Shown here in pieces: positions 48,891 through 62,641 of a stretch of DNA of 64,000 nucleotides. This stretch comes from a virus (Duplodnaviria; Caudoviricetes), in IMG/VR virus record IMGVR_UViG_2910903598_000004, positions 55,964 through 119,963 of that record. One strand, 5' to 3'. A program made the translations under genes and the position numbers. Every line of letters begins with the position of its first letter. The stretch's first letter is position 1. The notes under the pieces were generated by a model. The model worked only from the letters and a program-made list of their open reading frames with translations. It made no database searches and was not told the DNA's origin.

Positions 48891-48955
48891 TCTGCTACCA
48901 GCAGATTTCGCCTTTGCGAATTATTTCGATGCTTTCTTATTTTTACACAAACTGC
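48891..48955 (-). ncRNA. tracrRNA-like scaffold A (fused to array A)
   Basis: Anti-repeat GCAGTTT-GTG-TAAAAAT, nexus AAGA-AAGCA-TCG, hairpins TTCGC-AAAG-GCGAA and TCTGCT-GGT-AGCAGA. Confidence 0.8.
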
Positions 48956-48964
48956 TTATTTGAC

Positions 48965-49050
48965 CATTGACGATGGTTCTGTTTTACAGTCTTCTAAAAC
49001 GGCAGTAGAGAGCTGGGGTTTGCCGCCTTTCATTGACAATGATTCCGTTT
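48965..49050 (-). CRISPR. Type II-like mini-array A (1 full + 1 partial repeat, one 30-nt spacer)
   Basis: Repeat 48965-49000 GTTTTAGAAGACTGTAAAACAGAACCATCGTCAATG (36 nt); spacer 49001-49030; partial repeat 49031-49050. Confidence 0.8.
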
Positions 49051-49103
49051 CTTTAATCGTATAGACCATTTTTCAGTAATTATACTTACAATCAATAATA
49101 TTC

Positions 49104-50276
49104 TTAGAAAAACCTAAATTTATCCTTTTGATCACTCGGTACCGCATAAATACGTTTGATTTTCTGTCCAATATATAATTTGTCTAAAATATCCGTAATT
49201 TTCTTGCCTTCATCTGTTTTCTCTTCATCTTGACTTTCATGCGTATAAGCAATATCATACTCTGGTTCTGGATTTGTAACATGAAACATTAACATTCTTT
49301 TATCCTTATCAATATAGTTATTTGAAAAATTCATTGGAAATTCGCCAATATATTCTCCAACATAAGATAATGGACGAATATTATCTGGAAGATATATACT
49401 CATATCAGTAATTGTATTGTCATACAGCTGCCATTCTTTTATTTTTCCACTTAATGTTGCCTGATTTTCAAATTCTACAATAATTTTTATGTTCTTATAC
49501 TGACTTATTCTGATAATATTAAGATCATTAATAGCTTCCTGAAATTTTAATCCATTGTTTAGTTCGAAAGCAATGGACCGTAAACAGTCATAGTTAAGAT
49601 TCATTCGTACACTAAAAGCAATCACATTTTCAATTTCATCATAATATTGCTTGTCTAACTTATCTTCCATATAATCACGAATTTCATCTGCTGTTGGATA
49701 TAAAAATCTAAAATGATAATGAAATCTTCCAGGACGATTTATCAAATATTGACTTAAACTTTGAATCTCATTACATGTAATCACAAACAGTTTCTTTCCT
49801 GCACTTACTCCATCAAATAAAGATAACATCTCCGCTTGACAATTATGTTTCTTTTCATCAAAAGTTTTATCGTATTCATCAAACAGTATCATAACTGTTT
49901 GCTCAATTTCTTCAAGAAAGTTTGCAATTCCCTCATGATATTCATTAACCAATATAACAGGTATCCCTTTTTTTCTTGCTTTCAATCCTAAACACTTAGA
50001 AAAAAGTGACTTTCCAATTCCTTTATCTCCACTTAGAATTACTCCAAGATTTCGATTCATCTTATCCATGGAATTCAACACTTTCTTGACTTTATCTAAA
50101 TGCTGACCATAAATTTTTGTTTCTGGAATCTCAAAATCGTGTGCTTCTAGTAAAGAAAAAATTCTTGTTTCTGGATCATAATCCACCCGATAAGTTTTTG
50201 GTGGTAGTTGATCGTACGTGGTAATCGCATTATTAAAAATTCTATATCTTTTACCTGATTCTACAATATGCATCAA
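49104..50276 (-). CDS. AAA+ ATPase
   Basis: LSGDKGIGKS, ILFDEYDK, ITCN, INRPGRF. Confidence 0.85.
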   Translation of the reverse strand: MMHIVESGKRYRIFNNAITTYDQLPPKTYRVDYDPETRIFSLLEAHDFEIPETKIYGQHLDKVKKVLNSMDKMNRNLGVILSGDKGIGKSLFSKCLGLKARKKGIPVILVNEYHEGIANFLEEIEQTVMILFDEYDKTFDEKKHNCQAEMLSLFDGVSAGKKLFVITCNEIQSLSQYLINRPGRFHYHFRFLYPTADEIRDYMEDKLDKQYYDEIENVIAFSVRMNLNYDCLRSIAFELNNGLKFQEAINDLNIIRISQYKNIKIIVEFENQATLSGKIKEWQLYDNTITDMSIYLPDNIRPLSYVGEYIGEFPMNFSNNYIDKDKRMLMFHVTNPEPEYDIAYTHESQDEEKTDEGKKITDILDKLYIGQKIKRIYAVPSDQKDKFRFF

Positions 50277-50467
50277 ACATTCCTCTTTTCTTATGATATT
50301 TTATATTGTTTGCTTTTTGCGATCTTGCAAATCTCGTAACGACGAGCGGTTTCAATATATTTTTACTTCTACTTTTCCTATTTTGATAAAATTATTGAAG
50401 TTATTGTAATATTTTGATACATTTTTTGTCATAAACATTAACGTTTATAAGAGATATCCGAATTAAC

Positions 50468-61871: not shown

Positions 61872-61886
61872 TTTTTCATTCCCTTC

Positions 61887-62294
61887 CTATTCTTTCTTTT
61901 CATCTGGCATCTTGTTACGAAAATCATCCGGAATTCGATTATTATTTGAAATTTTCTTATATATCTTACAAAATTCCGGATCACTCATTGCCATCATATA
62001 GTCATTCATAATCAAATATTGATTGAATCGCTCAAATTCTTCTTTCGTCAGCGAAGTTTTGCTCGCTCTTTCTATCGTATATGGTTGAATCATCCCATCT
62101 TTTACCATGTCTCTTACAAAAGAAATTTTCTGCTCAACTTCTTTATAAGCTTTTGAGTCAAAAGAATCTTTCAACAGCTCTAAATTAGATACTAATTCGT
62201 ACATTCCATTTGCAAGAGCAGTAATTTCACCATAACTCATATGCACAACCGCATAAGAATTTGGATGATTTACATGTAATTCTTTAATATACAT
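61887..62294 (-). CDS. Hypothetical protein; probable paralog of 7719..7985
   Basis: 135 aa with GGGAG RBS. Confidence 0.65.
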   Translation of the reverse strand: MYIKELHVNHPNSYAVVHMSYGEITALANGMYELVSNLELLKDSFDSKAYKEVEQKISFVRDMVKDGMIQPYTIERASKTSLTKEEFERFNQYLIMNDYMMAMSDPEFCKIYKKISNNNRIPDDFRNKMPDEKKE

Positions 62295-62331
62295 AAAGCA
62301 CTCTCCCTTCTCAGCTATTTGAAAATATTTC

Positions 62332-62402
62332 CTGCCACACGGCAGTTCTCGTTTTAACGAGTCTATTCGATTATTCCATTCTTATTTTTACGCACTGTGC
62401 AA
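62332..62402 (-). ncRNA. tracrRNA-like scaffold F
   Basis: TTGCACAGT-GCG-TAAAAAT-AAGA-ATGGAATAA-TCG, hairpins CTCGT-TAAA-ACGAG and CTGCC-GTGT-GGCAG. Confidence 0.8.
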
Positions 62403-62413
62403 AATAATTTGAC

Positions 62414-62641
62414 TATTTAGACATGATCCTATTACACAGTTACAAAACTGAACTCCAAGAATTTTCACGGATATTTTTTATTTAGACATGTTCCTATTAC
62501 ACAGTTACAAAACTCAAATTGACGTTCAGGAAATGCAACAGTACATTTAGGCATGTCCGCGTTACACGGTTACAAAACGCCTTTCTTTTTCAGAAATTTT
62601 ATTTTGTCTTTAGACATATCTCTGTTGTACGGTTACTATTC
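62414..62641 (-). CRISPR. Type II-like mini-array F (4 repeats of increasing degeneracy, 3 spacers)
   Basis: 35-nt repeats 62414-62448 and 62479-62513 GTTTTGTAACTGTGTAATAGGA(T/A)CATGTCTAAATA; 62544-62578; degenerate 62607-62641; spacers 30, 30 and 28 nt. Confidence 0.9.

Follow-up and report, generated by a model that had tools for sequence, protein, structure and literature searches.

Dispersed CRISPR array-tracrRNA cassettes and a predicted nuclease-dead Cas9 in a prophage family of Anaerostipes hadrus

Introduction

The closest published relatives of the RNA cassettes described here are viral single-guide RNAs (vsgRNAs) and viral CRISPR mini-arrays. The cassettes lie in the terminal 64 kb (64,000 nucleotides (nt); hereafter 'the window') of a 119,963-bp virus contig from IMG/VR (IMGVR_UViG_2910903598_000004, positions 55,964 to 119,963; contig G000), where six of eight copies join a short CRISPR array to a scaffold that resembles a trans-activating CRISPR RNA (tracrRNA). 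The vsgRNAs are single and compact (~89 nt), with a 13-14-nt guide, a 5-nt loop and a terminator at the end; they are located in anti-CRISPR islands, and most have the same guide as the host tracr-L, which is directed at the cas9 promoter (Feussner et al., bioRxiv 10.64898/2026.06.01.729453, June 2026). By definition, a vsgRNA is found on a viral contig that lacks cas9 and is shorter than 120 nt, and no more than one of the first 7 bp of its stem may be mismatched (Feussner et al. 2026). Viral mini-arrays (PMC11656645) and RNA anti-CRISPRs are known for other CRISPR types.

The cassettes share features with both kinds of element. Like the vsgRNAs, they consist of a repeat-like stretch joined to a tracrRNA tail as a single sgRNA-like (single-guide RNA-like) unit, and they are present on phage or prophage contigs without cas9. 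Like the viral mini-arrays (PMC11656645), they hold one to three spacers and occur in viruses without cas genes. We analysed the structure, relatives and possible targets of the cassettes, and the nuclease-dead Cas9 (dCas9) that is predicted for related prophages.

Results

Structure of the guide cassettes

Eight cassettes are found on the minus strand of the window, between 48.9 and 62.6 kb, of which two (c7 and c8) are array-less. The other six have a common layout. Going upstream from a match to the Rfam family RAGATH-30, they contain an anti-repeat of 8-11 nt that is complementary to the start of the repeat, a linker of ~10-14 nt with the consensus GGTCAAAT, a 36-nt type II-A-like repeat that starts with GTTTT(A/G), one to three spacers of ~30 nt each, and a decayed repeat. 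The repeat units are spaced by 65-66 nt in c2, c3 and c5, and there is a single unit in c1, c4 and c6. In all six array loci the 5'-most repeat is decayed, with the 3' half alone kept. An initial annotation, which had only the letters of the window and its open reading frames at hand, had described these minus-strand loci. All six exist, within 2 nt of the ends that it gave, and the order that it read (decayed repeat, ~30-nt spacers, GTTTT(A/G) repeats, linker, anti-repeat, scaffold) is found in each of them; as a total, however, six is too low, since the compact c7 and the degenerate c8 bring the number to eight.

RAGATH-30 (RF03055, a 59-nt model with a gathering score of 59.5 bits) matches seven copies above the gathering score, at 60.6-71.5 bits (61-71.5 bits for the six array loci). 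The consensus starts with GUAAAAAUAAGA...AUCGAA, a part that Rfam draws as unpaired. In the cassettes, the repeat begins with GUUUU(A/G), and the first bases of RAGATH-30 pair with this beginning to form a lower stem. The AAGA...UCG stretch is invariant and sits at the position of the nexus of a Cas9 tracrRNA, with two hairpins after it. Judged by this layout, which matches that of tracrRNAs of cellular Lachnospiraceae, RAGATH-30 here can be read as the nexus and two-hairpin tail of a Cas9 tracrRNA. We found no link between RAGATH-30 and CRISPR in the searchable literature.

The pairing is supported by covariation. The six window units were aligned with MAFFT; 84.6% of the cells pair in this alignment, against 37-48% with the partners slid, and double-sided changes are present at 10 pairs. 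As the initial annotation had proposed, a covariance model (R1) was built on the six window units; a search of related prophage contigs with R1 yielded 85 full-length copies, 42 of them distinct. Among the distinct copies 87.3% of the cells pair (33-50% for slid partners). Compensatory changes are present at the repeat:anti-repeat pairs 11-66, 12-65 and 13-64, and the two scaffold hairpins covary, being 97.6% and 88.3% paired. The single-stranded positions of the scaffold are near-invariant. The 42-copy alignment was fitted to the R1 model and is for that reason biased toward the structure, but the six-copy MAFFT alignment agrees with it. The structure of the cassettes is confirmed as real, far beyond chance.

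An sgRNA-like shape is the minimum-energy structure in four of the six array units. The duplex energies of cognate and non-cognate pairs (-8.4 vs -6.3 kcal/mol) come from a crude test and are separated only modestly, because many cassette types have similar upper stems. With anti-repeat, nexus-like stretch, two hairpins and covarying pairing all present, the geometry of a Cas9 CRISPR RNA (crRNA):tracrRNA pair that the initial annotation had recognised holds. So does its view that array and scaffold are continuous: every array comes with a covarying anti-repeat and a scaffold of its own, and neither a terminator nor an obvious promoter separates it from them.

A predicted nuclease-dead Cas9 in related prophages

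Exact-sequence look-ups assign the window proteins, and the Cas9 of related prophages described below, to Anaerostipes hadrus, a human gut member of the Lachnospiraceae. The window stretch occurs in gut metagenomes and in numerous isolate assemblies, which belong to a single species. Contig G000 has a G+C content of 32% and nearly all genes on one strand, and its phage core resembles SPbeta weakly; no near relative of the accessory island was found in the phage and plasmid collections searched. IMG/VR contains six related contigs, with 5-15 cassettes each as against eight in G000. The phage core of one of them, G002, is 97-99% identical to that of G000, and this contig encodes a 1312-residue Cas9 (783 bits to TIGR01865), with a full cassette ~100 nt after the cas9 stop codon and five further cassettes behind the next genes.

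The same arrangement recurs in loci L052, L067, L068, L213, L214 and L215, where a full cassette lies 27-371 nt past the cas9 stop codon in six of six cases and further cassettes follow downstream. The Cas9 proteins of these loci are 71-100% identical; they include members at 71-74% and a subclade of ~1155 residues. In a search of 5.8 billion proteins, the phage Cas9 is separated from cellular Cas9s by a wide gap (at most 43% identity), and the nearest active cellular Cas9s (40-43% identity) lie in ordinary cas9-cas1-cas2-csn2 loci. RAGATH-30 has no match in the cellular type II-A loci, and the R1 matches there are weak and located at the loci's own tracrRNAs. The RAGATH-30 cassettes and the phage Cas9 clade belong together, because a cassette lies behind this Cas9 in every locus examined, while the cellular tracrRNAs have no RAGATH-30 match. 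Searches of species genomes yielded no loci related to the dCas9, and a scan with the scaffold pattern gave lone, scattered, chance-like matches and nothing else. In samples of Lachnospiraceae, from which the host species was apparently absent, RAGATH-30 was found in 0 of 151 genomes and a Cas9 above 43% identity in 0 of 401.

The catalytic residues of seven members of the phage clade were aligned with those of six cellular homologues. In all six homologues the RuvC D/E/H/D residues and the HNH histidine are intact. In the seven phage proteins, the RuvC-I Asp is replaced by Thr, the RuvC-II Glu by Lys and the RuvC-III His-His by Gln-Ala or similar residues; the HNH His is replaced by Tyr in every full-length member except one. 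The ~1155-residue subclade has lost the entire HNH domain (for example L067:10001-13471; proteins P0004-P0019), but retains the REC, bridge-helix and PAM-interacting (PI) domains (PAM, protospacer-adjacent motif), and has cassettes behind it as does the full-length form. REC, bridge-helix and PAM-interacting domains are recognised in the phage Cas9 generally. The ratio of nonsynonymous to synonymous substitutions (dN/dS) between members is 0.06-0.10, which corresponds to strong purifying selection. From these substitutions we predict that the phage Cas9 is nuclease-dead and should bind guide RNA and DNA, and therefore DNA binding is expected from it, not cutting. The 90%-identity cluster of the protein comprises 2,780 member sequences in public data, and the NCBI type (WP_044924278.1) is annotated plainly as Cas9.

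Loci obtained by way of a SecA-like protein of the window show what follows just past its end. There the island adjoins a truncated host csoR, beside thrS, and the window therefore represents one of the accessory arms of an integrated element. At the end of the dCas9 island are a Tn916-type Xis and an integrase, beside intact csoR and copA. Compared with the 5' half of the intact csoR, the fragment has 79% identity and breaks off at the same point (L192:3977-4279 compared with L067:22184-22492). The element appears to be integrated into the host csoR; a truncated csoR at one junction and an intact one at the other would be expected if the window arm and the dCas9 arm are the two ends of a single csoR-integrated element. 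The comparison also suggests that the element carries a csoR 5' part of its own. Cassette types are common to both arms. Isolate assembly X7 contains both the window island and the dCas9 gene at ~99% identity; it is one of four isolate runs with the window island, the other three (X1-X3) having no cover at dCas9 and being uninformative either way.

The initial annotation had postulated a Cas9/IscB-like effector encoded elsewhere on the element or borrowed from the host. That a dCas9 may be encoded elsewhere on this element gains support from the Cas9 of related prophages, which lies beside identical cassette types; this evidence comes from relatives of the contig. As to the kind of effector, the Cas9 part of the proposal stands, and IscB is unlikely because the scaffold is of the Cas9 type.

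Spacer turnover and a protospacer in another phage

In homologous cassettes of different strains, the spacer beside the decayed repeat is common to them, and the spacers on the scaffold side differ or are extra. Thus, the scaffold-proximal spacers of c3 differ in relatives, c4 has two extra spacers between its spacer and the scaffold in a relative, and the distal spacer of c2 is common to relatives while the proximal ones are different. Isolate contigs contain 30-nt replacements and unit deletions at scaffold-side spacer positions. The half that is lost from the decayed repeat is the half facing away from the scaffold. The linker consensus is the reverse complement of ATTTGAC, which resembles a leader anchor, and it immediately adjoins the repeat on the scaffold side. 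In cellular relatives the leader-repeat junction has ATTTGAG, the leader-anchoring sequence of S. pyogenes. These comparisons indicate that spacer turnover is polarised, with the newest spacer probably beside the scaffold; since spacers turn over at that position, the arrays are not static. For the integration machinery, the 'leader' would be the tracrRNA side, toward which the array would be transcribed, and hence the newest spacer would always be in the single-guide position.

A metagenome scan with the scaffold-proximal spacer of a c3-type cassette from relative G003 found the spacer in eight copies of the array and, besides these, in four true protospacers (one with 30/30 and three with 28/30 identical positions). 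The protospacers are located on the first codons of a PemK/MazF-like toxin gene (L203:9856-10215, L209:7398-7751), which heads the replication module of a temperate gut phage. This module also contains genes for a DUF2800 nuclease, an Enc34-type single-stranded DNA-binding protein, PolA, VapE and SNF2, and a divergent gene for an ImmA/IrrE peptidase. The guide would pair with the coding strand, and the PAM side (TAAAATC, 3' of the protospacer) faces the promoter. From CRISPR interference (CRISPRi) it is established that dCas9 stops RNA polymerase when the guide pairs with the coding strand and the PAM side points to the promoter. A PemK-domain protein is encoded in one dCas9 island as well (L213:10944-11618).

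Other target searches were negative. The IMG/VR spacer search used exact 24-27-mers, and spacers of two relatives had no match in that collection. No self-target of at least 13 nt was detected in the contig or its relatives, the putative guide of c7 had no match of at least 11 nt in the contig or related sequence, and no guide match was found upstream of dCas9.

Positions of the individual cassettes and neighbouring genes

All coordinates refer to the window, and all cassettes are on the minus strand. Cassette c1 (48889..49060) consists of a repeat remnant (~49031-49060), a 30-nt spacer (49001-49030) and the 36-nt repeat with linker, anti-repeat and scaffold (48889-49000; Rfam match 48889-48946). 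It scores 108.4 bits with R1, has the sgRNA shape as its minimum-energy fold and is followed by a start codon 36 nt downstream (48852). The degenerate scaffold c8 (50314..50372; RAGATH-30 37.9 bits, below the cut-off), with no recognisable array, lies 37 nt upstream of an AAA/STAND ATPase gene. The compact, array-less c7 (52825..52903; RAGATH-30 match 52825-52882, 60.6 bits; R1 35.7 bits) has a short AUUUUA/UAAAAAU stem and a scaffold, resembles tracr-L or a viral sgRNA, and is conserved in relatives. It is located 26 nt upstream of a gene for a 776-residue protein (50468-52798, minus strand), which comes directly behind c3 and c7. This protein, and a 921-residue protein (18819-21584, minus strand), have no Pfam, PHROG or PADLOC match. 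Cassette c3 (53079..53310; family D12; R1 103.9 bits) contains a repeat remnant, a spacer (53261-53289), a repeat, a second spacer (53195-53223/4) and the terminal repeat with linker, anti-repeat and scaffold (53079-53194).

In c5 (54770..55060; D2; R1 110.9 bits), two decayed repeats and two spacers (54952-54981 and 54886-54915) precede the terminal repeat, linker, anti-repeat and scaffold (54770-54885). This cassette is 20 nt upstream of a gene for a 260-residue protein, and its type is present in the dCas9 island of relatives too. Cassette c4 (57689..57857; R1 113.8 bits) has a repeat remnant, a single spacer (57804-57833) and the terminal repeat with linker, anti-repeat and scaffold (57689-57803). 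Cassette c6 (57946..58142; R1 100.2 bits) has decayed repeats, a single spacer of ~25 nt (58060-58084) and the corresponding terminal part (repeat, linker, anti-repeat and scaffold, 57946-58059). Directly before c6 and after a SecA-like gene, there is a strong intrinsic terminator (58190-58235, minus strand; a GC-rich 11-bp stem and a T-run), and c6 and c4 must therefore have a promoter of their own. Cassette c2 (62329..62641; D1, D4; R1 101.8 bits) has a decayed repeat, spacers at 62579-62606, 62514-62543 and 62449-62478, and three repeats, the last of which is joined to linker, anti-repeat and scaffold (62329-62448); a gene for a 135-residue protein starts 34 nt downstream.

The distance from the cassette end to the start codon of an accessory gene is 20-135 nt for six of the eight cassettes, and at most 37 nt for five; behind c3 and c6, the next feature is another cassette and not a gene. 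In five cases, the ribosome-binding site of the next gene is within ~40 nt after the scaffold. The accessory genes behind the cassettes are mostly without assigned function, and neither PADLOC nor PHROGs named any of them as a defence or anti-defence gene. No intrinsic terminator was found between a cassette and its downstream gene, and a promoter scan of the cassettes gave a result equal to or below that of shuffled sequence.

Guide cassettes flank adjacent genes for a SecA-like ATPase (723 residues) and a SecY-like channel (413 residues) at 58270-61871 (minus strand). Such an accessory Sec pair is unusual on a phage. Just downstream of the cassette region (43515-47274, minus strand) are genes for a DUF2357 protein (596 residues) and an AAA_5 ATPase (661 residues; PADLOC PDC-M26A, E 7e-42), a candidate McrBC-like defence pair. 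A 1607-residue fusion of an Eco57I-type methyltransferase and an SNF2/ResIII helicase is encoded at 10973-15796 (minus strand), near genes for a type IA topoisomerase (22348-24510) and a UvrD helicase (24715-26943). On the other arm, ATLF-domain proteins, with a fold like that of the anthrax lethal-factor metalloprotease, recur upstream of dCas9 (L052, L067, L213, L214), and the dCas9 island repeatedly has a papain-like peptidase with a lectin-like domain, plus a glucosaminidase.

Discussion

We hypothesize, with about an even chance of being right, that the cassettes are guides for a prophage-encoded dCas9 that silences competing phages. In this reading, each module is a small CRISPR array of minus-strand orientation, with a dedicated tracrRNA part ~10 nt past the last repeat. 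The scaffold-side spacer, the repeat and the tracrRNA part would fold, either as one molecule or after cutting by RNase III, into a Cas9 guide, and the upstream repeats might pair in trans with the same tracrRNA part. The cognate protein would be the dCas9 of the A. hadrus prophage family (WP_044924278.1 type), which related copies encode on the opposite accessory arm beside the integrase. Loaded with a guide, dCas9 would bind the DNA of competing phages without cutting it and block early transcription or replication, so that one phage would exclude another by a natural form of CRISPRi. Spacers would be acquired at the scaffold-proximal repeat by ATTTGAC, presumably through the Cas1-Cas2-Csn2 proteins of a host type II-A system. 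The composite picture, in which a giant temperate phage combines a nuclease-dead Cas9 with dispersed array-tracrRNA modules, takes new spacers into the single-guide position and silences the early genes of its rivals, is proposed tentatively, as somewhat short of an even chance.

Several observations weigh against this hypothesis. Neither cas9 nor cas1 was found in the whole 119,963-bp contig, in line with the initial annotation, which had reported both as absent from the window; its further statement that iscB and cas2 are lacking, and the presence of csn2, were not addressed by separate searches. Cas9 was not found in related contigs G001, G003, G004 and G005 either, although these records may stop short of the cas9 arm. 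There is no Cas1, and to that extent no adaptation module, in G000, G001, G002, G003 and G005, where cas2 and csn2 were again not searched for separately. The scaffolds have no Rho-independent terminator at the 3' end, as a U-tract is missing after the last hairpin. The spacers of the window match nothing in the contig, related prophages, INPHARED or IMG/VR. Finally, the only protospacer case comes from a relative and not from the window, and its orientation is a single observation that would arise by chance in half of the cases.

The lack of cas9 on the contig would equally fit cassettes that arm an active host Cas9 to cut competing phages or plasmids, with the dCas9 of some relatives as a side branch. 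The spacers are full length (~30 nt), one from a relative matches a rival phage perfectly, and A. hadrus strains have variable CRISPR-Cas systems (PMC9998913). Moreover, spacer turnover requires a host adaptation module, which is usually accompanied by Cas9. We nevertheless consider this use unlikely, since no active Cas9 among the 5.8 billion proteins exceeds 43% identity to the cassette-linked dCas9, the nearest cellular tracrRNAs do not match RAGATH-30, and the cassettes are directly behind dCas9 in all six loci. Somewhat less probable still is that the cassettes are RNA anti-CRISPRs or decoys of the vsgRNA or Racr kind that sequester the host Cas9 or direct it elsewhere, while dCas9 soaks up host crRNAs, so that the prophage is protected from type II immunity. 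Neither 30-nt spacers with polarised turnover nor a perfect match to a rival phage would be needed for such a role, and the scaffold is unlike those of the nearest cellular Cas9s. No target in a cas9 promoter was found upstream of dCas9 or in related sequence, and no anti-CRISPR genes were recognised among the island genes, although the copies sit in an accessory island whose genes are mostly without assigned function, and the compact array-less c7 resembles a viral sgRNA. There are precedents for decoys: viral sgRNAs tie up Cas9 and shut down its promoter (bioRxiv 10.64898/2026.06.01.729453), and sequestration of host crRNAs has been suggested for a phage RuvC-dead Cas9 with its tracrRNA (PMC10910872).

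The close spacing of six of the eight cassettes to a start codon (20-135 nt), with no clear terminator between, raises the question whether the cassettes regulate prophage or host genes, either through dCas9-guide complexes or as structured 5' leaders of the downstream genes. The oldest spacers are conserved among relatives, and natural nuclease-dead RNA-guided repressors exist (TldR, tracr-L). We regard regulation as improbable, however: no self-target of at least 13 nt was found in the contig or its relatives, and the scaffold-proximal spacers differ between near-identical prophages and are therefore a poor fit to fixed regulatory targets. It is very improbable that the cassettes are decaying, functionless relics of captured type II arrays and tracrRNAs. 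Decayed 5' repeats, the degenerate c8 and the absence of an effector from the contig would be expected of relics, but the pairing is kept by covariation in 42 distinct copies, the single strands of the scaffold are near-invariant, dCas9 is under strong purifying selection, and spacers are being replaced.

If guide-directed silencing by the prophage dCas9 is correct, the system would provide RNA-guided, non-destructive superinfection exclusion in a prevalent gut butyrate producer, and would be the first type II counterpart of the binding-only systems of mobile genetic elements (type IV and type V-M); it would also explain RAGATH-30. It may well be the first interference system found in nature that is based on a dCas9. 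RAGATH-30, an orphan Rfam family, gains a role as a tracrRNA tail, and the 2,780-member cluster points to a widespread natural dCas9. The findings suggest that a single guide and a dead Cas9, the two inventions on which CRISPRi rests, pre-exist in one phage. They also describe a new array layout, in which acquired spacers would become single guides directly. For tool building, the cassettes offer a compact set of mutually distinct repeat:anti-repeat pairs on one common scaffold.

Compared with vsgRNAs, the cassettes differ in occurring in 5-15 copies per record, mostly as mini-arrays with 30-nt spacers that turn over, in having a ~30-nt loop and no terminator, and in that their cognate Cas9 is phage-encoded and predicted to be dead. 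The repeat-to-scaffold units measure 112-120 nt before a guide is counted, and together with a spacer they are longer than a vsgRNA by that definition; c7, at ~79 nt without its guide, would be short enough. RAGATH-30, Anaerostipes, mini-arrays and nuclease-dead Cas9 are not mentioned in the vsgRNA preprint (bioRxiv 10.64898/2026.06.01.729453). In tracr-L of the S. pyogenes type II-A system (Workman et al. 2021; bioRxiv 10.1101/2020.05.21.102756), an upstream repeat-like segment folds onto the anti-repeat with a large loop, as in the cassettes. However, tracr-L is a single RNA of the host that has a short guide and represses cas9, whereas the cassettes have full spacers in arrays of an acquisition-competent form on a prophage. 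The relative's spacer against another virus fits inter-virus competition, as with the viral mini-arrays, but the known mini-arrays copy host repeats, rely on host effectors (mostly type I) and have neither a tracrRNA of their own nor a link to a dead Cas9.

The phage type II-C Cas9 (Altae-Tran et al. 2023, PMC10910872) resembles the present family in that an impaired Cas9 and a tracrRNA are both phage-encoded. That system is of type II-C, with an active HNH domain, an association with SNF2, no arrays and one tracrRNA matched to host repeats, whereas the prophage Cas9 described here is II-A-like, has lost both nuclease centres and is accompanied by many array-tracrRNA modules. No nuclease-deficient type II example among systems of mobile genetic elements is described in the searchable literature. 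The proposed logic, a binding-only effector of a mobile element that borrows adaptation in trans, would be shared with type IV systems, type V-M Cas12m and TldR, which use protein families other than Cas9. In Rfam, finally, RAGATH-30 is a small RNA in which a long 'unpaired' 5' part precedes two hairpins, and in the cassettes this part corresponds to the lower stem formed with the anti-repeat and to the nexus.

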